This document shows positions 9,148-52,900 of a stretch of DNA of 64,000 nucleotides, piece after piece. The stretch is from a virus. The translations under genes were made by a program, and so were the position numbers. Under the pieces are notes generated by a model that saw only the letters and a program-made list of their open reading frames with translations, searched no databases and was not told where the DNA came from. Position 1 is the first letter of the stretch, and each line of letters opens with the position of its first letter. The stretch lies in the IMG/VR virus record IMGVR_UViG_3300037307_000721, one strand, 5' to 3'.

Positions 9148-9461
9148 TCCGCACCAGCCTGCTCGTCCTGGGAATGCTGCTCGGCCTGAGCCTAGCCGCC
9201 GGCTGGGCCACGGCCAAGCCGCGTAGCAACTGGGCCAGACACGAGGCGGTCTGCCTGCGCGGCGAGATCGCCGTGTGCGCGCAGCCGGTCAGCCAGCGCT
9301 CGCCCGTGGCCGTCCGACCCTACCGGGTCCAGGGCAGCCGGACCTGGCGCGTGGCCTTCGACATCGAAACCGGCGCGGCGGGAGCCGCGCCCATCTGCTC
9401 GTGCAGCCGGACAGCCGACCGCTCCTCGGTCGTGCTGACCTGCACCTGCACCGGGAGGTAG
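9144..9461 (+). CDS. Small secreted Cys-containing protein
   Basis: Signal peptide (MIRTSLLVLGMLLGLSLAAGWATA), six Cys. Confidence 0.7.
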   Translation: MIRTSLLVLGMLLGLSLAAGWATAKPRSNWARHEAVCLRGEIAVCAQPVSQRSPVAVRPYRVQGSRTWRVAFDIETGAAGAAPICSCSRTADRSSVVLTCTCTGR

Positions 9462-9465
9462 GACC

Positions 9466-9675
9466 ATGAAGACCAAGGCCAACGTCGCAGCCGCGCCGTG
9501 CAAGTGCTCGAGGAGCGCAGCCGGCGAGATCAAGGTGGGGATCGTCGAGCCGGCCCTGGGCCTGCGCCCGGCGCGCATGGTCTGGCTGTCCGCGAACGAG
9601 GTCATCGCCCGCTTCGGCGTCGAGCGCGGCGCCGAGCTGGTCGCCCGGGCTCGCGAGTCCGTCGAGAGCACATAG
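9466..9675 (+). CDS. Hypothetical protein
   Basis: RBS GGAGG/AGGA, codon bias. Confidence 0.7.
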   Translation: MKTKANVAAAPCKCSRSAAGEIKVGIVEPALGLRPARMVWLSANEVIARFGVERGAELVARARESVEST

Positions 9676-9677
9676 CC

Positions 9678-10538
9678 ATGCGAATCATCCGGAACACGCG
9701 CGGAATGAAGTGGGCTGAGCGGGCCTGGGATCCCGTGGTGGGCTGCACCAAGATCAGCCCGGGCTGCAAGAACTGCATGGCGGAGCAGTCGGTGTGCCGC
9801 TGGAACAACGTCCTGTATCCGCCGGGCTTCCACCCGACCGAGTACCCGGACGAGCTGCTCGTGCCGGCACGCGACAAGACCCCACGCAACATACTGGTCG
9901 CGCCGCTCGGCGACCTGTTCCACAAGGACGTCTCGTCGCGCTTCATTCGCCGGGTCATGCGCGTGATGCGAGACACGCCGTGGCACACCTACTACCTACT
10001 GACCAAGCGGGCTGAGCGGATGCACGACCTGCTTTCCTCGCTGAACTTCTGGCCCTTGCCGAACGTGCGAATCGGCACGTCGACCGAGAACCAAGAGTGG
10101 TACGATCGGCGCATCGCTTCGCTCGTAACAACGCCGGTGCATCACAGCTCGTTCCGCTACCTGTCGTGCGAGCCATTGCTCGGGCCCATCGAGCTGGGCG
10201 AGCGCGTGCGGGACATAGGCTGGGTGATCTGTGGTTGCGAGCGCGGTCGCGGCTCGCGCTTGGCAGACGCCGCCTGGTTCGCGGAGCTCAAGCGCCAGTG
10301 CCAGGCAGCCGGCGTCCCGGTCTACCACCACAGGTCCCACGACATCCAGGACTTCAACCGTCCGGGCTGGCTGTGGCAGCGCGCCAAGGCGAACGTGAGC
10401 GCGGCCCCGTGCTCCTGCGAGAACGGCCTGAGCCTGACGTTGCACGTCCCGGAACGCCTGGCGAAGTCGCGCAAAGCCGTGGCCAAAGCCCTCGCCGCCG
10501 CGCGCCCCGACGAGTTCATCAAGCTGCTCGTGCCGTAA
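9678..10538 (+). CDS. DUF5131 (phage Gp37/Gp68) family radical-SAM-like protein
   Basis: WDPVVGCTKISPGCKNCMAE, LLTKRAERM, IGTSTENQ, LSCEPLLG, WVICGCE. Confidence 0.9.
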   Translation: MRIIRNTRGMKWAERAWDPVVGCTKISPGCKNCMAEQSVCRWNNVLYPPGFHPTEYPDELLVPARDKTPRNILVAPLGDLFHKDVSSRFIRRVMRVMRDTPWHTYYLLTKRAERMHDLLSSLNFWPLPNVRIGTSTENQEWYDRRIASLVTTPVHHSSFRYLSCEPLLGPIELGERVRDIGWVICGCERGRGSRLADAAWFAELKRQCQAAGVPVYHHRSHDIQDFNRPGWLWQRAKANVSAAPCSCENGLSLTLHVPERLAKSRKAVAKALAAARPDEFIKLLVP

Positions 10539-10542
10539 GTTC

Positions 10543-10595
10543 TTGACGGTGCGCAACTCAACCTGTATCATGGAAGGCGGGTTGGGAGGGAGGCA
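10543..10595 (+). promoter_or_regulatory. Promoter TTGACG-N17-TATCAT followed by G-run tract
   Basis: Near-consensus boxes; shares layout with 48458 and 57580. Confidence 0.75.
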
Positions 10596-10637
10596 TGTTG
10601 TTGTAGGCTATGCCCCTCTCGCAGCCGCTCCCCGCTC

Positions 10638-10943
10638 ATGAACATCGGCCCCATGCTCGAGGCGCTGCCCGAGCTCCTGCCCTTGCCGTGGCGCAACGGG
10701 ATCTGCGAGGTCAGCCGGGAGCAGGCGCGGCAGCTGCTGCGCAGCCTGGCGCCAGGTGCAGGATTCCCTCGGCCGGGTTGGGAGGTCTGCCTGGTGGTGG
10801 AGGAGTCTGGAAGCTGGCGCAGCTCGGTCTGGCTGGTGAACCAGGCGCATCCGGCGAACCTGGAGTTCATCCTGGGGCTGGGCGTTGCCAAGAGCCCCTT
10901 CTACCTGCGCCTCGACTGGCGCAGCATCGTGAGGTTCACATGA
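10638..10943 (+). CDS. Hypothetical protein
   Basis: Codon bias; ATGA coupling. Confidence 0.65.
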   Translation: MNIGPMLEALPELLPLPWRNGICEVSREQARQLLRSLAPGAGFPRPGWEVCLVVEESGSWRSSVWLVNQAHPANLEFILGLGVAKSPFYLRLDWRSIVRFT

Positions 10944-11389
10944 TGACCAGCAAGAGCAAGCACCCCTTCGACTCGGCGCCGCTCGGCACGCCGGCCCTCG
11001 AGGTCTGCGCGGCCTGCGGTCAGGAGACGGGCAGCGTACTGCTCAAGACGCGGGGGCGCATCGGCGGCCAGGACTACTCGGGTCCACACCACGTGGCGAT
11101 GGAATCGTCGCGCTGCGAGTTCTGCCGCTTCCTCGAGATCTGGTGCGCGTCCGAGAAGCACGACCCCAAGACCATGGGCAAGGTCGGGGCGGCCAAGATC
11201 GTCGAGGGCAGCGGCGCGAGCGAGCGCCTGGTCGCGTTCGTGCCCTTCACCGAGCACGAGGACCTGAACAAGACGCTCGCCGATGGCACGCCGTTCACGT
11301 TCCAGCACGGCATGGTCATCAGGGCGTCGCGCGACGGCGACGACTCGACCCGCTTCAGCCTGGTCGAGATCGTCAAGCCGGGCGTGTGA
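10940..11389 (+). CDS. Hypothetical protein with CxxC...CxxC Zn motif
   Basis: RBS GAGG, ATGA overlap. Confidence 0.8.
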   Translation: MMTSKSKHPFDSAPLGTPALEVCAACGQETGSVLLKTRGRIGGQDYSGPHHVAMESSRCEFCRFLEIWCASEKHDPKTMGKVGAAKIVEGSGASERLVAFVPFTEHEDLNKTLADGTPFTFQHGMVIRASRDGDDSTRFSLVEIVKPGV

Positions 11390-11392
11390 CTT

Positions 11393-11842
11393 GTGGCGCT
11401 CAGACCGTCCACCGTGGCGCGCCGGCTGGCGCGACTGCACGAGGCACACGAGCAGCGCATCGAGGCCCTGGCCGCGAAGGCGCGCGCCGAGATCGTCATC
11501 CCGTTCTGCGACCGGCATGGCGTGTGGTTCGTGTCCGGGATGGGCGTGTGGTCCTTCGAGAAGCTGCTCGGCAAGCCCATCAAGCCCGGCGAGCCCGGCG
11601 AGCCCGGGGACCGGATCACCAGCCTGGACTGGGACCAGTTCATGGACGAGGGCTTCGCCGCGACCGACTCCGAGTTCCCCGAGGACCGGGAGTGGGTGGA
11701 GCAGCGACGCCCGCCGGAGGGCTACGCAGCCGTCCGCGAAGTCGTCGAGCTCGAGGTGCCAGGAACCCAAGCCTGGGGCGGAGTGACCGGAACGCTCGGC
11801 CTCTACATGGAGGATTACAAGCCATGCTCACCGACGGACTGA
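11393..11842 (+). CDS. Hypothetical protein
   Basis: GTG start, codon bias. Confidence 0.7.
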   Translation: MALRPSTVARRLARLHEAHEQRIEALAAKARAEIVIPFCDRHGVWFVSGMGVWSFEKLLGKPIKPGEPGEPGDRITSLDWDQFMDEGFAATDSEFPEDREWVEQRRPPEGYAAVREVVELEVPGTQAWGGVTGTLGLYMEDYKPCSPTD

Positions 11843-12156
11843 TCAGCCAGGTGCAAGTCGCAACTGGAACATTGGAAGCAACCTTGACACTTCTGCTCGT
11901 CTCGGCCATGCTGCTCATCGGAGGGGCCGTGATGATCGGCCTGGTGGGCTACGCCCAGAGCTGCATCGCCTGGCGCTGGGTGGACTGGCAGGAGGACCGG
12001 CGAGACGAGCACCGCTACTACCTGCTGGACGCCCTGCGCAGGATGCAGGGCCTCGGGCTCAGCCCACACGTCATCATCCGGCTGGCCCTCCACGAGGCGC
12101 AGCAGCGCAGCACGTTACCCTCCGCCAGGGGCTGGCTGTTCGCCAAGTCGCAGTGA
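11824..12156 (+). CDS. Hypothetical membrane protein
   Basis: RBS GGAGG, long hydrophobic segment. Confidence 0.65.
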   Translation: MLTDGLISQVQVATGTLEATLTLLLVSAMLLIGGAVMIGLVGYAQSCIAWRWVDWQEDRRDEHRYYLLDALRRMQGLGLSPHVIIRLALHEAQQRSTLPSARGWLFAKSQ

Positions 12157-12196
12157 CGATAAGGCGGGTGCTGGAATCATTGGGTTTTTCGAGGGA

Positions 12197-12245
12197 GCTA
12201 AGTACTTGATCTCGATCATCGCTGGAGCGTAACAAGTACTTGTTA
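12197..12245. promoter_or_regulatory. Operator-like 16-bp perfect palindrome TAACAAGTACTTGTTA (12230-12245) with second AAGTACTT core at 12200-12207
   Basis: AT-rich intergenic gap; read directly. Confidence 0.6.
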
Positions 12246-12314
12246 TCACACGTCAACCCCCGTGAAATTCCCTTACCTTCCACGAAAACTCGAGATCTCT
12301 AGGAGTACAAGCTC

Positions 12315-13924: not shown

Positions 13925-14493
13925 CCAGCAAGTACGACCCCGAGCACGAGCCCGAGAAGTACTGGGCCATCAGCTGGCTCTGCGAGGCGTGCTTCGCCGA
14001 GGGCGACAACGCCGAGTGGCAGCTCGCCGAGGGCAAGTGCCCCAAGTGCGGGAGCGAGAAGGTCGGGCGCACGGCGTCCGTGCTCAGGCACGTGCAGACC
14101 GGGGAGATCATCTGGGGCGGGGACTACTGGTGCGACTGCTGCGCCGACTCGCTGCTGCCCGGCGTGCTCTTCCCGTGGGACGAGGACGTCGGCCACGCCG
14201 GCGTCGAGAAGTGCGACACCTGCCAGATCTACCAGTACGACGACGACGCAGCCGCGGCGCTCGCTAAGCTGCTCGGCCCGGAGTACGAGGTGCATTCGTA
14301 CCAGGTGTTCGAAGACCCGAATGCGGCGGGCGCGTTCCGCTTCGCCGTCTTCCCAGCCGGCCCGGGCAAGGCGCCGCTCACGTTCGACGAGGGGCGCGCG
14401 CTCTGGTACCGGGTGGCCGAGAGCCGGATCAAGCCCAAGCCGACACTGCCCGTGCGGCGTCTGCCTGAGCTCAAGGCTCGGACCAAGGAGTAG
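13921..14493 (+). CDS. Hypothetical Cys-rich (Zn-ribbon) protein
   Basis: Multiple CxxC; ATGA coupling. Confidence 0.75.
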   Translation: MTSKYDPEHEPEKYWAISWLCEACFAEGDNAEWQLAEGKCPKCGSEKVGRTASVLRHVQTGEIIWGGDYWCDCCADSLLPGVLFPWDEDVGHAGVEKCDTCQIYQYDDDAAAALAKLLGPEYEVHSYQVFEDPNAAGAFRFAVFPAGPGKAPLTFDEGRALWYRVAESRIKPKPTLPVRRLPELKARTKE

Positions 14494-14497
14494 AGCC

Positions 14498-14794
14498 ATG
14501 CCGTGCGACACCCGCTACATCCAGGAGCAGCAGCGCAAGGAGCGCGAGGCCGCGCTCGCCGAGCTCCAGCGCCAGATCCAGCAGGGCAAGATCATCCTGG
14601 AGAAGGCGCCCAACGGGCAGGTCCGCATCCGCAACTGGGGCGAGACGGTGACCGCGAAGTCCGGCTGGCACGAGAGCTGTGTGCTCGACAAGATTGCTCG
14701 GTCGGGCAACTGGCTCATCAAGGCCAAGCTCAAGGCACTGGGTATCGACGCGAAAGCATTGATAGAACAGCACGCGGCCAACCACAGGCGTTGA
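14498..14794 (+). CDS. Small MPCDT-type protein, probable partner of the AAA+ ATPase; 3' end recoded by HNH cassette
   Basis: RBS AAGGAG; codon usage changes after ~14690; paralogous tail at 15819-15935. Confidence 0.8.
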   Translation: MPCDTRYIQEQQRKEREAALAELQRQIQQGKIILEKAPNGQVRIRNWGETVTAKSGWHESCVLDKIARSGNWLIKAKLKALGIDAKALIEQHAANHRR

Positions 14795-14821
14795 CATAGC
14801 AACCGACTTTCACGTACTGTA
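14792..14821 (+). promoter_or_regulatory. Promoter TTGACA-N18-TACTGT built on the upstream stop codon
   Basis: Read directly. Confidence 0.6.
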
Positions 14822-14833
14822 TCAGTATGCGAG

Positions 14834-14992
14834 ATGGCCATGACGAAGAAGCGCGACGACGAGAAAGCATTGCCGGTCTGTCATTGCGAACGTTGCGGAC
14901 ACGACTGGCGCCAGCGCAAGCCGGGCAAGCCGGTGCGCTGCCCCCGTTGCGGAAGTCCCTACTGGCAGACGCGGCCTCGCTCGCCACGTTGA
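14834..14992 (+). CDS. 52-aa Zn-ribbon protein (CERCGHDW...RCPRCGSPYW); below ORF-track cutoff
   Basis: Translated by hand; CxxC-x17-CxxC. Confidence 0.75.
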   Translation: MAMTKKRDDEKALPVCHCERCGHDWRQRKPGKPVRCPRCGSPYWQTRPRSPR

Positions 14993-15822
14993 GAGCACAG
15001 GTGCTTGCGCGACGTGGGCTCGCGCTCGAACCATGGTTCTGGCGGCAAGTGCAGAGGCGCGGCGAGTGCTGGTTGTTCCGACCAGATGGCAAAGGCGATC
15101 GATACAGCCGCGTGTATGTAGACACCGGCGATGATCCAACCAGCATGCCGGCGCATCGATTGGCCTATGCCCTGGTCTACGGCCCGGTGCCGGTCGAATT
15201 GTACGTCTGCCACGAGTGCAATGTGAAGCGCTGCGTGCGCCCTAGCCATCTCTACTTGGCAACAGCGCGGCAAAACACATTGGATGCGCTTCGTGACGGT
15301 CTCATGCCACACGGCGAGTCGCATGGCATGGCGCGCCTGACACTCAAGCAAGTGCGCTGGGTGCGACGGATGTACAACATCGGTGAATTGAGCACGGTTG
15401 GGCTAGCCGAGAAGTTGGGGACCACACATGGCGTGATCTCCAACATTCTGCGTGGCGTGACTTGGGCTTTCGACTTGCAAACCGATGGGCATGCGGATCG
15501 TCGTGTTTCGAGCTTCGCGCCGCGGCGAAAAATCGATCCCGAGCGCAAGCTCTTGGCTGCGCAACTTTACCTCGGTGGACTCCGAGCCGCCGAGGTAGCC
15601 GAGGAGCTCGACGAATCCGAAGGGCTCGTGAAGACGTGGCTGCGCGATGTGGGTGCTAGAAAGGACCGTTGGGCGAAGCCTGATGAGCTCGTGCTGGCCG
15701 AGCGGCTGTATTGGGCTGGCGTAAGCACCAACGAGATCGGCCGGCGCTTGGCGCGCAGCCAGGGCACGATCAAGTATTGGGTATTCATCCACGGATGGAA
15801 ACGGCGGAAGGCGGATCGGTGA
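14989..15822 (+). CDS. HNH endonuclease with C-terminal HTH-like repeats
   Basis: FWRQV..CW..AHRLAY..VCHECN..CVRPSHL..N; TTG start overlapping upstream TGA (start uncertain). Confidence 0.85.
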   Translation: MRAQVLARRGLALEPWFWRQVQRRGECWLFRPDGKGDRYSRVYVDTGDDPTSMPAHRLAYALVYGPVPVELYVCHECNVKRCVRPSHLYLATARQNTLDALRDGLMPHGESHGMARLTLKQVRWVRRMYNIGELSTVGLAEKLGTTHGVISNILRGVTWAFDLQTDGHADRRVSSFAPRRKIDPERKLLAAQLYLGGLRAAEVAEELDESEGLVKTWLRDVGARKDRWAKPDELVLAERLYWAGVSTNEIGRRLARSQGTIKYWVFIHGWKRRKADR

Positions 15823-15935
15823 CCATTACCTTCAGGTGTGGCACGTGGCTCGCGAAGCAGCGGCTCGAGGCCATGCTCAAGCCGTTGGGCATGAAGCCGA
15901 AGGACCTCATCGCCGCCCACGGACACGAGCACTAG
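15819..15935 (+). pseudogene. Stranded original 3' end of the 14498 gene
   Basis: RCGTWLAKQRLEAMLKPLGMKPKDLIAAHGHEH aligns with RSGNWLIKAKLKALGIDAKALIEQHAANH. Confidence 0.75.
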
Positions 15936-15938
15936 GAC

Positions 15939-16241
15939 ATGGCCATGGACCTGCACATTCATCGACAGCGGCACACGAAGTGGAACTCCTGGTGGCTGCT
16001 CGACGCCAAGGGTATCCCCCTTTGCCGAGTCTGCCCGGAGTGCCTTGCCGCAGCCCGGGCGCAATACGCCCCCGAGGTTCTCGGGGAACGTGGCCGGTAC
16101 GAAGACCTGGTCGCGCGGACTGTCGCCGTTCATCCTTGGACCCTGCGAGCTCTGGGGCGGGCGCGTCTCGAAGAACATGGAGAACGCCTGGCAATACTCC
16201 AAGGTCTACGGCGAGTTCCTGCGCCCCCGGGTGCCGGGTGA
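15939..16241 (+). CDS. Small phage protein (WLLDAKGIPLCRVCPEC); 3' half probably read-through
   Basis: RBS AGGA; N-terminal half looks like a real phage domain. Confidence 0.55.
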   Translation: MAMDLHIHRQRHTKWNSWWLLDAKGIPLCRVCPECLAAARAQYAPEVLGERGRYEDLVARTVAVHPWTLRALGRARLEEHGERLAILQGLRRVPAPPGAG

Positions 16242-16650
16242 CTCGCTCGGGCCACACGACATGGGCATGGCCATCGACCTACCTCGTTGGCTTGAGTGGG
16301 CCACGGCTGGCTGGGCCAAGTCGCGGGCCGATCGCTACCCGATGGGCAGGGGCAGGACGCCGGCCTTCTCCTACTGGGACGGCATGCACTTCGGCTACAT
16401 CGAGGCGCGAGCCAAGATCTACGTACCGCTCTATTGGAATGCTGCGCGTGGAACCGACGCCTGGCAGCTTCTCGTTGGCGCGTGCCGGGTGGCAGAGAGC
16501 GCGAGGCAGGACCTCGTGCTGCGCGACTTCGACGGCTACGACCACCGGGCGCTGGGCATGTCGCTGATCGACGTGCTCAACAGCCCAGGTCGCAAGATGG
16601 GCCATGCCTTCGTGCTGGCCATGATGCTCAAGGAGCTGGGGATCGAATGA
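16090..16650 (+). CDS. Hypothetical protein, LSPF...ENAWQYSKVY family (DUF6939/NADAR-like, tentative)
   Basis: LSPFILGP, NMENAWQYSKVY, RYPMG, YIEAR..IYVPLY, DFDG, GHAFVL; GTG start uncertain. Confidence 0.7.
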   Translation: MAGTKTWSRGLSPFILGPCELWGGRVSKNMENAWQYSKVYGEFLRPRVPGDSLGPHDMGMAIDLPRWLEWATAGWAKSRADRYPMGRGRTPAFSYWDGMHFGYIEARAKIYVPLYWNAARGTDAWQLLVGACRVAESARQDLVLRDFDGYDHRALGMSLIDVLNSPGRKMGHAFVLAMMLKELGIE

Positions 16651-16823
16651 GCCCGGAAACCGACTACTGGGAAGAGGACCCGGACTATCCGGTCGCCGAC
16701 TGGAAGTACGAAGTCGCCAACGGCAACACCAGAATGGGCTACTGGGAGTGGGTCGAGTGCAACCGAGACGGGGAAGCGGCCGATGAGGCCGAGTCCGAGT
16801 CCGCGATCGGGGATCAGCCATGA
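16647..16823 (+). CDS. Small acidic phage protein (DWKYEVANGNTRMGYWEWV)
   Basis: ATGA coupling on both sides. Confidence 0.75.
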   Translation: MSPETDYWEEDPDYPVADWKYEVANGNTRMGYWEWVECNRDGEAADEAESESAIGDQP

Positions 16824-18388
16824 ACGCACAGAACAAACAGCAGGAGCTGCTGAACCTGCTCAAGGCGAAGTTCACATTGCTGTATCTCGTGACGGGCGAG
16901 GAGCGCCGGGCGCAGGCCGCGGCCATCGCCGTGGCCGAGGCCCTGAAGATGGACGCCTACCTCTGGTCCATCACGGGCGGCATGCTCAAGGTGGGCGACA
17001 AGGAGCCGGCACCCTGCGACGATCCGATGGCCGCGCTCATGTTCATCCAGGAGGCCAAGGGCCGCGGGCTCTTCGTGCTCCGGGACTTCGACCCGTTCAT
17101 CGAGCAGGGCGGCGCGAACGTCGCCAACATCCGCAAGCTCAGGGAGCTCGCGGACGAGCTCGCCAACGCGAAGAAGGCCGACGCCCGAGCCATCGTCATC
17201 CTGAGTCCGAAGCTGGTGCTGCCGGATTCGCTCCGCGCCACGACGGTTGTCATCGAGTGGCCGCTCCCGGACAAGGAGGAGTTGCGGTCGACCGCCGAGG
17301 CGGTGGTGAGCAGCCTGCCAGCCGACCTCAAGGTGGAGCTTCCGAAGGAGCCAGCCGCGCTGGCCAGCCTCATCACCGAGGTCTCCACCGCATCGCAGGG
17401 GCTGACGCTGATCGAGGCGCAGAACGCTTTCGCCTTGTCGGCGATCAAGCACAAGACCATCAAGCCGGGCGAGGTCTCCTCCTACAAGGAGCAGGCTGTC
17501 ACCAAGAGCGGACTTCTCGAGTGGCGCAGGCCCAAGGGTGGATTCGATCGGGTCGCCGGCTTGCTCGTGATGCGGCAGTGGTTGGTCGAGCGCCGCGAGG
17601 GTTTCAGCGAGGAAGCTCGCAAGTACCGTCTCGATACGCCGAAGGGTGTCCTCTGCACAGGCGTGCCTGGCTGTGGCAAGTCCGCCATGGCCGACGCAGC
17701 AGCCTTCGAGTGGGGTGTTCCACTCCTCGGCTGGGATGTCGGCAAGACCTTCGGCAAGTACCAGGGGCAGACCGAGGACCAGACACGGCAGGTCATCGCC
17801 ACGGCCGAGGCGGTGGCCCCCTGCATTCTTCGCGTGGATGAAATCGAGAAGGGCTTCTCGGGCATGGGAGGATCGGGCGATGCGGACGGCGGCTCGTCCA
17901 ATCGCATGTTCTCCACATTCCTGACCTGGATGCAGGAGAAGACTTCGCCGGTCTTCGTGTTCGCCACGGCGAACGACGCGGACAAGCTGCCCGCCGAGCT
18001 GCTCCGCAAGGGCCGCTTCTCGGAGGTCTTCTTCGTCGACCTGCCGAACGAGGAGGAGCGCGAGGGTATCTGGCGCGTGCACATCGGACTTCGCGGTCGC
18101 GACCCTGAGAAGTTCGATCTGGCCGAGCTGGTCGCGGTGTCCGACAGCATGAGCGGAGCCGAAATCGAAGGTACGTTGGTCGACGCGATGTTCGCCGCCT
18201 TCGCGCGCAAGGAGGAGATCGCCACGCAGCACATCCTCGAGGCCGCCAAGAACACCGTGCCGCTCAACAAGATGGCGCCCGAGCGCATCGAGAAGGTGCG
18301 ATCGTGGGCCAAGGGCAGAGCACGCCTGGCCTCGGCCCCGGTCGTCGCCAAGAGGCCCGCCAGCGACAGGTTCAGCGAGCTCGCTTGA
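16820..18388 (+). CDS. AAA+ ATPase, Ycf46/SpoVK-like
   Basis: Walker A GVPGCGKS, Walker B LRVDEIEK, SRH FATAN...ELLRKGRFSEVFFVDLP; degenerate N-terminal AAA domain. Confidence 0.93.
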   Translation: MNAQNKQQELLNLLKAKFTLLYLVTGEERRAQAAAIAVAEALKMDAYLWSITGGMLKVGDKEPAPCDDPMAALMFIQEAKGRGLFVLRDFDPFIEQGGANVANIRKLRELADELANAKKADARAIVILSPKLVLPDSLRATTVVIEWPLPDKEELRSTAEAVVSSLPADLKVELPKEPAALASLITEVSTASQGLTLIEAQNAFALSAIKHKTIKPGEVSSYKEQAVTKSGLLEWRRPKGGFDRVAGLLVMRQWLVERREGFSEEARKYRLDTPKGVLCTGVPGCGKSAMADAAAFEWGVPLLGWDVGKTFGKYQGQTEDQTRQVIATAEAVAPCILRVDEIEKGFSGMGGSGDADGGSSNRMFSTFLTWMQEKTSPVFVFATANDADKLPAELLRKGRFSEVFFVDLPNEEEREGIWRVHIGLRGRDPEKFDLAELVAVSDSMSGAEIEGTLVDAMFAAFARKEEIATQHILEAAKNTVPLNKMAPERIEKVRSWAKGRARLASAPVVAKRPASDRFSELA

Positions 18389-18421: not shown

Positions 18422-19006
18422 ATGGGAAGGAAAAGACCAAGCGAGTTCAAGTGCAAGAAGTGCGGCGGCCCATGGACCAAGGATAGCGCCAAGGGGCTCT
18501 GCGCCAGGTGCTACCATCGCGCATGGGTCGCGGCCAACCGCGAGCGGGACAGGGCGCACAAGAGCGCGCACTACGAGCGCGGCAAGCGCGCGGGCCTGCC
18601 CGCGCAGCAGCGAGACAAGCGCTACTTTGACGGCAAGCGCGCCCGCGCCGTCGAGCGCGATGGCTCACGCTGCGCGAAATGTGGGCGTAAGGTGCGCACG
18701 AAGGGCAGCTTGATCGTCCATCACAAGGACGGTCGTGGGCGTGGATGCGCGCAGCCAAACAATCGGCTGAGCAACCTGGAGACAGTCTGCCGCCGATGCC
18801 ATCCGTCACAGCACAAGTTGCGTCGGTGGTCACGGCAGCATGATGCCTGCCGGATCTGCGGCAGAGAAGATCGCAAGCACAATGCACACGGCCTCTGCGT
18901 CGCGTGCTACAGCCGCCTAGAGTATCAAGGCGAGCTCGCAACCTTCATCGAGCGAGGTACAGAATGTCCGGCAACGAGAAGAAGACCGCCATCCAGAAGG
19001 GCCTGA
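18422..19006 (+). CDS. HNH endonuclease with Zn-finger arms
   Basis: RCAKCG...LIVHHKDG...NNRLSNLETVCRRCH; lower GC; upstream TTGACA on AAA stop codon. Confidence 0.85.
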   Translation: MGRKRPSEFKCKKCGGPWTKDSAKGLCARCYHRAWVAANRERDRAHKSAHYERGKRAGLPAQQRDKRYFDGKRARAVERDGSRCAKCGRKVRTKGSLIVHHKDGRGRGCAQPNNRLSNLETVCRRCHPSQHKLRRWSRQHDACRICGREDRKHNAHGLCVACYSRLEYQGELATFIERGTECPATRRRPPSRRA

Positions 19007-20184: not shown

Positions 20185-20247
20185 TTCGCGCACCAGCTTG
20201 CAATTCCGCACTTGCCTCGGAATATGTTCCTGGATACACTGGTCAGT

Positions 20248-21117
20248 ATGCCACAGGACATCTTCAAGTGCAAGAGCTGCGGAAGTCCCAACATGAAGGG
20301 GCGGGCGAGGGGCCTCTGCCGACGGTGCTACCTGGCCGACTACAAGCGATGCAACGCCGCGCGCTTGAGGGCGCGACAGAAGGAATACGCCGAGGGTTGG
20401 TACCGACGGAACGCACGGCAGAAGCGCGCGAGCGTGCTCGCCTATCGCACCGGAGGCAACCGGGAGCGAGCATTGGAACGGGCTGGCTATCGCTGCGAGA
20501 AGTGCGGCGAGCGCCGGCATCGCCTGTTGGGCGTGTGGCATCTGGACGGACGCAACTGGCGGCACGAGCAGCCCAACCACGCGATCGGGAACCTGATCGT
20601 ACTGTGCCGTCACTGCGCTCCGATCATCTTGCTTCGCCATGGCTGGAGCGACGAGCCGGGTTGCTATCCACGGTGCCTGAACTGCGAGCGAATCGACCGG
20701 TCGCACATGGCGCACGGCCTCTGCACCGCCTGCTACCAACGCCTGGGTTCATCTCAGCGGTTGTTCATCCGCGAGGTCCGGGCGGAGGACGCAAGCGAGG
20801 CCGACCGTGCGCGGTTCTGGCAGCACGTGGATCGTCGCAGCTCCGCGCCGTGCTGGCTATGGACCGCCTCTGGCACCGATGGGGGCTATGGCTATGCGAG
20901 GGCAGGGCGCGTCAGGGTGCTGGCGCACAGACTTTCTTTCGCATTGGCGAACGGGGCGGCCGAGCAGAACGTGCTGGTGTGTCACTCGTGCGACACGCCG
21001 GAGTGCGTGAACCCCGCGCACCTCTTCGCCGCCACATCGGAAGACAACATCCAGGATGCCATTCGCAAGGGACGCATGCGTTGGCAACGAAAGGATCAAC
21101 CCGATGACCATCCGTGA
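20248..21117 (+). CDS. Double-domain HNH endonuclease
   Basis: N-half paralogous to 18422 HNH; C-half RFWQHV..CWLWT..AHRL..CHSCDTPECVNPAHL..N. Confidence 0.85.
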   Translation: MPQDIFKCKSCGSPNMKGRARGLCRRCYLADYKRCNAARLRARQKEYAEGWYRRNARQKRASVLAYRTGGNRERALERAGYRCEKCGERRHRLLGVWHLDGRNWRHEQPNHAIGNLIVLCRHCAPIILLRHGWSDEPGCYPRCLNCERIDRSHMAHGLCTACYQRLGSSQRLFIREVRAEDASEADRARFWQHVDRRSSAPCWLWTASGTDGGYGYARAGRVRVLAHRLSFALANGAAEQNVLVCHSCDTPECVNPAHLFAATSEDNIQDAIRKGRMRWQRKDQPDDHP

Positions 21118-27452: not shown

Positions 27453-27905
27453 ATGCGCTTCCACGTCGTGAGTCGGGAGGAGGCCTGCCGGTGGAACCCG
27501 GTGGGCAAGCCGCACGTCATCATCTCGGTCACCTCGCCACCGGATCCGGAGGCGGAGGTCAAGCAGAACGAGCACACGCGCGGCGTGCTTCGTCTCGGCT
27601 TTCACGACTTGGACCAGGAGCCCGGGCCGATCTTCCGCAAGGTCTACGGCGAGCCGGTCATGTTCACCGAGGAGATGGCCAGGGCCATCGACTCGTTCGT
27701 GGCTCAGCATGCCGCGGACATCGAGACCGTGATCGTGCACTGCGACGCCGGACACTCTCGCTCGCCGGCCATCGCCGCGGCACTGGCGCATCGCTACAAC
27801 GAGCCGAGCGTGAACGACTGGTTCTTCAAGCATCGGACGCCAAACCGCTTCGTCTACCGCACGCTCCTCGAGGTGCTGATGGACGAGGGGACGAGGAAGT
27901 CATGA
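27453..27905 (+). CDS. Predicted protein-tyrosine/dual-specificity phosphatase
   Basis: HVIISVT, LRLGFHD (general-acid Asp), VIVHCDAGHSRSPAIA, PN-x2-VY. Confidence 0.88.
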   Translation: MRFHVVSREEACRWNPVGKPHVIISVTSPPDPEAEVKQNEHTRGVLRLGFHDLDQEPGPIFRKVYGEPVMFTEEMARAIDSFVAQHAADIETVIVHCDAGHSRSPAIAAALAHRYNEPSVNDWFFKHRTPNRFVYRTLLEVLMDEGTRKS

Positions 27906-27976
27906 AGGTTCGCATCGAGCAAGACGACAACCCGATGAACCCCCGCGAGGAGTTCGACAACCTGGAGATCTGTTGA
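27902..27976 (+). pseudogene. Stranded original 5' end of the 28538 gene
   Basis: MKVRIEQDDNPMNPREEFDNL matches KIVRDENPLNPREEFDHL; native RBS and ATGA coupling. Confidence 0.8.
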
Positions 27977-28620
27977 CCGATTCGGCAACTTGTGTAAGCC
28001 TTTGCACTAGGTTGTCGAACCGGAGGTCGGAAGTGAACAGGAAGACCAAGCGCGGAACGACCGCGACGCGCAATCGTGCGAAGGCGAAGGCTTGGCGCGA
28101 CGCCAATCCCGACAAGGTGCAAGCCTATGAAGAGCGTCGCGCAGAGAAAAAGCGGGCCTACACACGCGCTTGGAACGCTGCGCACAAAGAGCAGAGGCTC
28201 AGCTACTGGCGAGAGTACTATCGAACGCATCCTGAGCGGCGCGCGTACTACAACGAGCGCGGGAAGGCCAGGCGGCGACAACGCGAGCATGCACTGCGAT
28301 TGCGCGTGTTGGCCCATTACGGATCAGTCTGCGCCTGCTGCCAGGAGTCGACACTCGAGTTCCTGACAATCGATCACATCGAGGGCGGCGGTGTGCAGCA
28401 CAGGAAGGGCATACCCAGCGGGAACATCTACCGTTGGCTAGAAGCCAACGGTTACCCAGCAGGATTCCGCGTCCTGTGCATGAACTGCAACTGGGCCACG
28501 CGGTGGGAAGAGACCTGTCCGCACCAGAGAGACACAAGTGCCAAACGCCAAAATAGTCCGAGACGAAAACCCGTTGAATCCTCGTGAAGAGTTTGATCAT
28601 CTTGGGACAATGGTCTGCCT
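27965..28620 (+). mobile_element. HNH homing-endonuclease cassette 4 (HNH + replacement 5' gene end)
   Basis: Lower-GC segment between two versions of one N-terminus; boundaries approximate. Confidence 0.8.
28033..28587 (+). CDS. HNH endonuclease
   Basis: CACCQE..FLTIDHIEGGG...VLCMNCN; RBS GGAGG before GTG. Confidence 0.85.
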   Translation: MNRKTKRGTTATRNRAKAKAWRDANPDKVQAYEERRAEKKRAYTRAWNAAHKEQRLSYWREYYRTHPERRAYYNERGKARRRQREHALRLRVLAHYGSVCACCQESTLEFLTIDHIEGGGVQHRKGIPSGNIYRWLEANGYPAGFRVLCMNCNWATRWEETCPHQRDTSAKRQNSPRRKPVESS

Positions 28621-51352: not shown

Positions 51353-52130
51353 CATCCAGATCGAAGGCATCCTCATCAGCAAGAACCGCAAGACGGGCTG
51401 CTCCATCAACGTCGACCAGTGCACGCCCACCCCGTGGTGCCGGCCGCACTGCTACCGCTGTTTCCGCGACGAGGTCATCATCGCCGAGAAGGGCTGGGAC
51501 ACGACGCCGAACTCGGGGCCCATCACCTGGCGCACGCAGCGCGAGTCCTACAAGCGCAACGAGCGAGCCATCATGCTGGCCGGCCAGGAGGGCAGGCTCG
51601 ACACCGCGGCCGCGCTCATCGCATGTCGGCTGAAGGACCCGGACCCGCTGCGCGGCAACGGCACGGGCGACCTGTTCCCCGAGCTCTGCGAGCTCTACGC
51701 CCGCATCGCGTTCCACGGCAAGCCGGTGTTCCTCTTCTCGCGCCGGCCGGCCATGATCCGCGAGCTCCTCGACGTCTGCGATGGGTTGGAGCTCGATCCG
51801 GCGAAGCGGCCGTTCGTCCTGGGGTCCATCGACCCCTCGACCACGCTCTGCGAATGCCACCAGCTCGTCGAGGCCACGGCAGCGATCAACGGGCGCCCGG
51901 TGCTGGCCTACGCTACGGACAAGGGCGGAGGCATGGGCTGCGGCGAGGTTCGGGCGCATCGCTTCAGCCAGTACATCCAGGTGGTCTTCGGCTACCACAC
52001 GAACTTCATCAAGACCGTGATTCCGCATCCGCTGGCCTGCCCAGCAACCAACGGGCGGCCAATCCACTGCCGCGAATGCCGAAAATGTTTCGGACTTGAC
52101 CAGGACACTCCAACGGTTCGACAATGTTAG
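51345..52130 (+). CDS. GP88-like (radical-SAM-derived) phage protein with recoded 3' end
   Basis: N.KTG.S..CTPT..C..HCY, LRGNGTGD, FLFSR, SID, CPAT..C..C..C. Confidence 0.7.
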   Translation: MGSIQIEGILISKNRKTGCSINVDQCTPTPWCRPHCYRCFRDEVIIAEKGWDTTPNSGPITWRTQRESYKRNERAIMLAGQEGRLDTAAALIACRLKDPDPLRGNGTGDLFPELCELYARIAFHGKPVFLFSRRPAMIRELLDVCDGLELDPAKRPFVLGSIDPSTTLCECHQLVEATAAINGRPVLAYATDKGGGMGCGEVRAHRFSQYIQVVFGYHTNFIKTVIPHPLACPATNGRPIHCRECRKCFGLDQDTPTVRQC

Positions 52131-52827
52131 TATCGTTGTCATGCCACAAGGAGTGCCCATGGGAAAGTACTCGGTGCGCTGCCGCGCGTGCGGCGCGCGA
52201 TTGGGTGCGATCACCGCCGCGCACGTTCGCGGACACGGAATGACTCTAGTCGCCTACATGCGCCGTTTCGGCGGCCCGCTAACCGCCGAGCTTGTGCGCC
52301 AGAGTCGAGGAAGAGCCAAGTCGCCGGAGCAGCGAAAATCGCTAGCCGAACGATTCTGGGAGAAGGTATCGCGTGGGGCTGAGGACGAGTGCTGGCTGTG
52401 GACCGGCGCCGGGGCTCGCACGAGCCGCTACGGCAACCTGATCCGCCCCGACGGCCAACACGCGCAGGCGCATCGCGTGGCGTGGGAGTTGGCGCATGGG
52501 CCCGTGCCTGACGGATTGCAGGTACTCCACACTTGCGATCATGGACTATGCGTCAATCCTGCTCACCTGTTTCTTGGAACGCAGCTCGACAACGTGTTGG
52601 ATATGGAACGCAAGGGCCGCCACGGGCGCGGCTACCAACTGGCACCTGGCTGCCGCCAAGGCGAGTGCAATGGCAATGCCAAGCTCACGGAGAAGCAGGT
52701 GCGACTGGCTAAGCAACTGGCGGCGCGTGGCATGCGCCCGTGCGACATACAAGAGCGGACAGGCATCAAGAAGAACACGCTGTTTCACATTCTGAGCGGA
52801 CGCCAGTGGACGCATGTCGAACCATGA
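52020..52827 (+). mobile_element. HNH homing-endonuclease cassette 5 (replacement 3' gene end + HNH)
   Basis: Lower GC; two versions of the gene tail flank the HNH; boundaries approximate. Confidence 0.85.
52141..52827 (+). CDS. HNH endonuclease with N-terminal C2H2-like motif and C-terminal HTH
   Basis: RFWEKV..CWLWTG..AHRVAWEL..HTCD..CVNPAHLFLGTQLDN. Confidence 0.9.
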   Translation: MPQGVPMGKYSVRCRACGARLGAITAAHVRGHGMTLVAYMRRFGGPLTAELVRQSRGRAKSPEQRKSLAERFWEKVSRGAEDECWLWTGAGARTSRYGNLIRPDGQHAQAHRVAWELAHGPVPDGLQVLHTCDHGLCVNPAHLFLGTQLDNVLDMERKGRHGRGYQLAPGCRQGECNGNAKLTEKQVRLAKQLAARGMRPCDIQERTGIKKNTLFHILSGRQWTHVEP

Positions 52828-52900
52828 GAAGGAGTGCCCCGCGACGGCCGGACAGCACGTCAAGTGCACCGAGTGCCGGCGCTGCTTCGGGCCGGAATGA
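52823..52900 (+). pseudogene. Stranded original 3' end of the GP88-like gene
   Basis: HEKECPATAGQHVKCTECRRCFGPE* vs HPLACPATNGRPIHCRECRKCFGLD. Confidence 0.85.

Follow-up and report, generated by a model that had tools for sequence, protein, structure and literature searches.

A probable intron-free, intein-free homing cassette that gives a phage gene a foreign 3' end and strands the native one

The window analyzed here, a 64,000-nucleotide stretch of viral DNA, carries a small gene that is followed on the same strand by a low-GC spacer, a short ORF of zinc-ribbon type, an HNH_3-type endonuclease gene, a segment corresponding to the missing end of the small gene and, further downstream, an AAA+ ATPase gene (Table 1). 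The ORF of the small gene is kept whole by reading into a foreign tail, and the gene's own last 31 codons are displaced behind the HNH gene. The intervening cassette, consisting of the replacement tail, the spacer, the 52-codon zinc-ribbon ORF and the HNH_3 endonuclease gene with its helix-turn-helix modules, occupies about 1.15 kb (approximately 14687-15839), its junctions being placed by protein alignment and codon style only and accurate to a few codons.

Table 1. Features of the small-gene locus, with positions in the window.
Feature	Position	Strand	Remarks
Small target gene	14498-14794	+	98 codons (98 aa); insertion of the cassette at codon 64
Native 5' part, codons 1-63	14498-14686	+	Presumed left homology arm; 94-95% identity to P0002/P0003; GC3 0.98, CAI 0.92
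Foreign replacement tail, codons 64-98 and TGA	14687-14794	+	Read in frame from the native part; opens the cassette
Low-GC spacer	14795-14833	+	39 bases, GC 0.46
Zinc-ribbon ORF, 52 codons	14834-14992	+	Two Cys-x2-Cys pairs; frame differs from that of the HNH gene
HNH_3 homing-type endonuclease gene	14989-15822	+	Longest ORF 14827-15822; start probably TTG 14989 or GTG 15001
Right junction, six codons in the frame of the tail	15822-15839	+	Match neither tail type; relatives differ at nearly all positions
Stranded native tail, codons 70-100 and TAG	15840-15935	+	Presumed right homology arm; starts at Gly70; stop TAG 15933-15935
Next native gene, start	15939-16100	+	ATG 3 bases past the stop of the stranded tail; end approximate; highest-GC3 frame until about 16050
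AAA+ ATPase, conserved neighbour of the small gene	16820-18388	+	Pfam AAA, E 1.3e-26; PHROG 8638, E 6.7e-133

For the small protein of the window (P0001), seven close homologues were found, and a profile search yielded 51 representative clusters. Searches at the DNA and protein level against 50,697 phage records revealed relatives of neither the locus nor the small gene, and no relative of the gene was present in the bacterial and archaeal genome contigs scanned. A single distant relative (L001; 39%) was found in the viral contigs scanned, and two metagenome scans returned just 51% relatives (L002 and L003) and no empty site. Against Pfam, the small protein gives a sub-threshold match at most. 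An AlphaFold model built from 49 sequences (pLDDT 83) places residues 59-96 as three helices within the fold; when this model was compared with PDB folds, no match reached E 0.001. The predicted position of these helices would fit a gene that cannot simply be truncated. In addition, Gly, Trp, Lys, Leu and Ala residues and two His residues that are conserved family-wide are present both in the tail in use and in the stranded tail. From the intact ORF, the residues conserved in both tails and the three helices that the tail contributes to the modelled fold, we infer that the small gene is under selection.

The pairing of the small gene with an AAA+ ATPase gene is also seen in L001, where the two genes are adjacent, and in L002, where one gene lies between them; the genes located between the small gene and the ATPase gene are not common to the window and L002. 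In the intervening region of the window (15939-16650), GC3 is at first highest in the frame that contains the ATG at 15939 and then, past a switch at about 16030-16070, in the frame of an ORF at 16045-16650. Both frames are open across the switch, and this could represent either a single frameshifted gene or a long overlap of two genes. Downstream of the ATPase gene, HNH-type genes at 18422-19006 and 20212-21117 flank a 426-codon gene, and the second of them has an HNH_3-like C-terminal half; HNH genes are thus concentrated in this module. In L002, a metagenomic phage related at 51%, the AAA+ ATPase gene (9260-12247) is interrupted within its ATPase domain by a LAGLIDADG intein (Pfam Intein_splicing and LAGLIDADG_3), so that a further class of homing element has also entered the module.

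Comparison of the small protein with its relatives reveals a sharp change at codon 63. In the alignment, P0002 and P0003, its nearest relatives, share 60/63 and 59/63 residues with it over codons 1-63, whereas past codon 63 the identity to these two proteins is 46-50%, with matches at just 15 of 39 positions. P0002 and P0003 are proteins of 100 aa in which the ORF continues directly into a native-type tail, and they represent the uninterrupted allele. The tail in use in the window is four residues shorter than the native type and shows 60-63% identity to its counterparts in P0004 and P0006, proteins whose N-terminal parts are merely 56-62% identical to that of the window protein. This short tail type is hence found in a second lineage (P0004 and P0006), and, when P0004, P0006, P0007 and P0009 are compared, the nearest N-terminal relative of that lineage, P0007, is long-tailed.

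The two tails also differ in codon style. GC3 and CAI are 0.74 and 0.49 in the tail in use and 0.70 and 0.48 in the HNH gene, as against 0.94 and 0.78 in the stranded tail and the still higher values of the native 5' part (Table 1). The codon style of the tail in use thus matches that of the HNH gene and the style of the stranded tail matches that of the phage, indicating that the tail in use is the foreign one. In maximum-likelihood trees evaluated by AU tests, for which the alignments are short (63 and 36 columns) and the clades were named after viewing the alignment, the N-part data reject a clade of P0001 with P0004/P0006 (p-AU 9e-5) and the tail data reject a clade of P0001 with P0002/P0003 (p-AU 0.003). 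In the tail tree, P0001 groups with P0004/P0006 (support 83/82). P0003 is the closest protein to the stranded tail, whose clade with P0002/P0003 is not rejected (p 0.12). These tests serve to support the identity values rather than as independent evidence.

The stranded tail is closely related to the C-terminal ends of the uninterrupted proteins: 27 of its 31 residues are identical to those of P0003 (z = 30 against shuffles), and its identity to P0002/P0003 is 72-84%. In local BLOSUM62 alignments to the C-terminal ends of six homologues, z ranges from 11 to 30, with 11 to 26 for the homologues other than P0003, and none of 2000 shuffles (0/2000) reaches the score. When the whole window was searched in six frames by tblastn with P0003, the match at 15840-15932 (E 6.6e-16) was the sole second copy. 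The stranded tail ends at the same residue as P0002, P0003 and P0005. The codons add up accordingly: 63 native codons, six missing codons and 31 stranded codons make 100, the length of P0002 and P0003, so that about six native codons (64-69) are absent from the locus. In the junction ahead of the tail, two of six codons end in A or T, compared with 1 of 31 codons of the stranded tail. Three contigs, originating from two collections (JGI/IMG and Logan), are on record for the small gene and likewise for the stranded tail, and this speaks against an assembly error.

These results bear on a first-pass annotation of this DNA, made from its letters, which had noted that the gene at 14498 ends in a tail with shifted codon usage and that a native tail follows the HNH gene at 15819-15935. 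The shift in codon usage is borne out by GC3 and CAI, and the alignment of both tails separates them as expected for an end replacement, the stranded one siding with P0002/P0003 and the current one with P0004/P0006. The native-codon tail is real as well, but it starts at 15840 and not at 15819. Uninterrupted relatives exist, the similarity of the stranded tail exceeds that of all shuffled controls, and the tail does not recur as a conserved stand-alone gene (see below).

Within the cassette, a scan of the + strand revealed no consensus promoter or terminator. The zinc-ribbon ORF gives weak matches to zinc-ribbon families of Pfam only, all of them under the cut-offs. In 14834-14989, GC3 is 0.75 in the frame of this ORF and 0.60 in the frame of the HNH gene, and the TGA of the ORF overlaps the possible HNH start TTG 14989. 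With the version beginning at GTG 15001, the alignments of phage HNH homologues set in at residues 1-17. This alignment start and the higher GC3 of the zinc-ribbon frame suggest that two genes are read, the zinc-ribbon ORF and then the HNH gene. The zinc-ribbon ORF may be a second gene of the cassette or a former N-terminal domain that was split off by a frameshift. A 12-base direct repeat (11/12 identical) that contains ATGGCCATG is present at 14831-14842, where the zinc-ribbon ORF begins, and at 15936-15947, where the native gene immediately behind the stranded tail begins. This repeat may be due to chance or may be left over from the start of a gene located downstream in the donor. Apart from the repeat, the proteins of the zinc-ribbon ORF and of this native gene are unrelated, and the former is no copy of the latter.

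The HNH ORF matches Pfam HNH_3 (PF13392) at 44.2 bits, with a cut-off (gathering score) of 24.8, and matches PHROG HNH families with E down to 1.8e-21. Its C-terminal region (residues 170-330) contains three to four helix-turn-helix modules of the Terminase_5, Sigma70_r4_2 and HTH_38 types. An HNH_3 domain combined with helix-turn-helix modules is typical of free-standing phage homing endonucleases, and this combination is counted in favor of a homing cassette. When the HNH motif is aligned to that of the HNH gene at 52096, the His and the final Asn are seen to be present, and the middle Asn of the usual Cys-Val-Asn-Pro is replaced by Arg. Judging from this substitution, the enzyme may be weakened, and its activity is uncertain. 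A comparison by sequence of the nuclease part with solved structures gave no match.

Other classes of mobile element were considered for the insertion and rejected. For group I and group II introns, no Rfam match was found in 14300-16300 at E up to 1. An intein is inconsistent with the stop codon and the change of frame between the small gene and the HNH gene, and no LAGLIDADG or intein domain is present. A transposon is likewise rejected, as there are neither terminal inverted repeats nor a target-site duplication.

Two further loci in the window carry comparable arrangements. The HNH protein described here is 37% identical over 155 aa (E 1e-23) to that encoded at 52096 and is unrelated to that at 27973, in agreement with the earlier assignment of this HNH and that at about 52 kb to one subfamily and of that at about 28 kb to a different one. 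In 52096-52900, a stranded tail behind the HNH gene shares a Cys-rich motif with the current end of the 51345-52130 gene (local score 84). In 27902-28620, the cassette replaces the start of a gene: a native stub of 24 codons (27902-27973), the ATG of which overlaps the stop of the upstream gene, agrees with the current start at 28538 at 12 of 18 residues. The first-pass annotation had regarded the replacement of gene ends as a general strategy in this DNA; on a brief re-check, the other two cassettes are real, but the one at about 28 kb replaces a start and not an end.

On these grounds, we consider it highly likely that a mobile cassette of about 1.15 kb has been inserted in the small gene at codon 64, keeping the ORF whole with a foreign end and stranding the native end. 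By analogy with known systems, the element is probably an intron-free and intein-free homing element that resembles the WHO elements of yeasts and the mobile ORFs of fungal mitochondria.

A different origin would be a one-off scar. In this case an ordinary free-standing HNH gene, situated downstream of the small gene in another phage, would have entered by a single illegitimate recombination that left the old tail behind by accident; this tail would be without a role, and the cassette would not move by homing as one unit. Phages are indeed known for free-standing HNH genes accompanied by co-conversion of flanking markers (PMC12724721), and neither a close homologue nor a second copy of the HNH gene was found elsewhere, either among 5.8 billion protein clusters or in viral contigs. 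Such a scar is nevertheless unlikely, given that the layout of replacement end, HNH gene and stranded native end occurs three times in the window with two HNH subfamilies, and that the stranded tail is intact and reaches exactly to the next gene, as expected of a homology arm.

The stranded tail might instead be a working small gene that provides the native C-terminal helices in trans. The gene caller's ORF containing it (P0051; ATG 15795 to TAG 15935, 46 codons) is open, has an ATG, shows no decay and is called as a gene on three contigs. These are, however, the same three contigs that carry the window's small gene, P0051 forms a singleton cluster, and among 1.84 billion representatives the only tail-alone protein is this ORF of the window itself. 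Moreover, its first 15 codons overlap the 3' end of the HNH gene and the non-native junction, and the host ORF already has a complete tail, which makes a function in trans very improbable. The stranded tail is untranslated as part of the small gene and is part of no conserved ORF. It is scarcely credible that the 3' end was duplicated locally in tandem, that the HNH gene inserted between the copies and that one copy then diverged in place: the two tails are homologous (13/34 identical residues), but they differ by a 4-residue indel and by a low DNA identity that speaks against a recent local duplication, and the translated tail has the codon usage of the HNH gene and not of the phage and is closer to the P0004/P0006 tails than to the stranded tail.

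For the homing cassette, a mechanism can be proposed by analogy. The HNH endonuclease would cut or nick a naive, native-type allele near codons 60-72, i.e., around the six lost codons, and, on co-infection, a genome with the cassette would provide the template for repair of the break. The 5' part of the small gene would serve as the left homology arm, and the stranded tail together with the downstream genes would serve as the right arm. The cassette allele would be immune, the sequence of the site being replaced by the diverged tail. Neither an intron nor an intein would be needed in this process.

Elements of similar organization have been described in organelle genomes. Mobile ORFs (mORFs) form gene hybrids in atp6 of Allomyces macrogynus and in atp6, atp9, cox2 and nad3 of Glomus sp. 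(Beaudet et al., 2013, PMC3630166, citing Paquin et al., 1994). As in the phage locus, an endonuclease ORF lies near the 3' end of the host gene together with a foreign, in-frame C-terminal piece, the native C-terminus is found downstream, and the native piece resembles close relatives, whereas the inserted piece is more divergent (PMC3630166). Unlike the phage element, mORFs encode LAGLIDADG or GIY-YIG endonucleases, reside in organelle genomes and in some cases are fused in frame with the host gene; the phage element has an HNH_3 nuclease with helix-turn-helix modules, encoded by a separate gene past the stop codon, and an extra zinc-ribbon ORF.

The WHO elements at FBA1 of Torulaspora and Lachancea yeasts (Coughlan et al., 2020, PMC7282813; Osborne et al., 2026, bioRxiv 10.64898/2026.08.13.744650) similarly combine an endonuclease gene with an alternative 3' part of an important host gene, and each integration replaces the 3' end of that gene without splicing. 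For WHO elements, the homing mechanism and allele-specific cleavage have been shown experimentally (PMC7282813; 10.64898/2026.08.13.744650), and for mitochondrial mORFs the mechanism has been proposed (PMC3630166). WHO proteins are LAGLIDADG and zinc-finger proteins derived from inteins and are encoded in a nuclear genome, in clusters of up to nine elements with several relics; in contrast, the phage element has one HNH gene and one relic and shares no homology with WHO. As its nuclease is of the HNH_3 type and contains no LAGLIDADG or intein domain, the phage element is an analogue of the WHO family and not a member by descent. As in end-replacing elements, the host ORF reads an alternative end, the native end is retained beyond the nuclease gene, and the inserted end is foreign while the relic matches close relatives.

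Phages themselves have systems of intronless homing, including SegF, SegG, SegB and MobE of T4 and the I-HmuI-like HNH genes of Skunavirus (PMC12724721, PMC2790892, PMC2988022). These resemble the present element in being free-standing phage endonuclease genes of HNH type, with co-conversion of the cleavage-resistant donor sequence that flanks them (PMC12724721). In these systems, however, the endonuclease genes lie between intact genes, and the recipient sequence is replaced without leaving a relic; in the window, the insertion is inside an ORF and the native end is kept as a relic. Our literature searches revealed no description, in phages, of stranded gene ends beside homing endonuclease genes.

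A more tentative extension of the homing model concerns the short tail type itself. It is possible, if doubtful, that this tail type is mobile and that HNH cassettes carried it into at least two diverged small-gene lineages, that of the window and that of P0004/P0006. The nearest N-terminal relatives of both short-tail lineages (P0002/P0003 and P0007, respectively) are all long-tailed. If this extension is correct, the tail dimorphism of the small-gene family would be a footprint of repeated end-replacing homing, a phage counterpart of the conflict between WHO elements and FBA1, and the AAA+ module would be a hotspot of such conflict, considering the HNH-type genes at 18422 and 20212 and the intein of L002.

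Homing elements are usually said to persist inside genes only as self-splicing introns or inteins. Bringing a spare gene end would be a third way for a homing element to reside inside a gene, one demonstrated in yeast and observed in fungal mitochondria. The kind of element is thus known from these fungal systems; what is new here is its occurrence in a phage, the HNH nuclease, the separate gene past the stop codon and the extra zinc-ribbon ORF. The locus offers a clear phage case with an HNH gene, a foreign end and a stranded native end. The presence of three such cassettes within 64 kb suggests that the strategy is common in large phages. End-replacing cassettes would explain orphan mini-ORFs and gene ends with odd codon usage in phage annotation, and they would mark genes that the phage probably cannot afford to lose. 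They would also provide natural pairs of cleavable and immune alleles for finding the target sites of HNH endonucleases.
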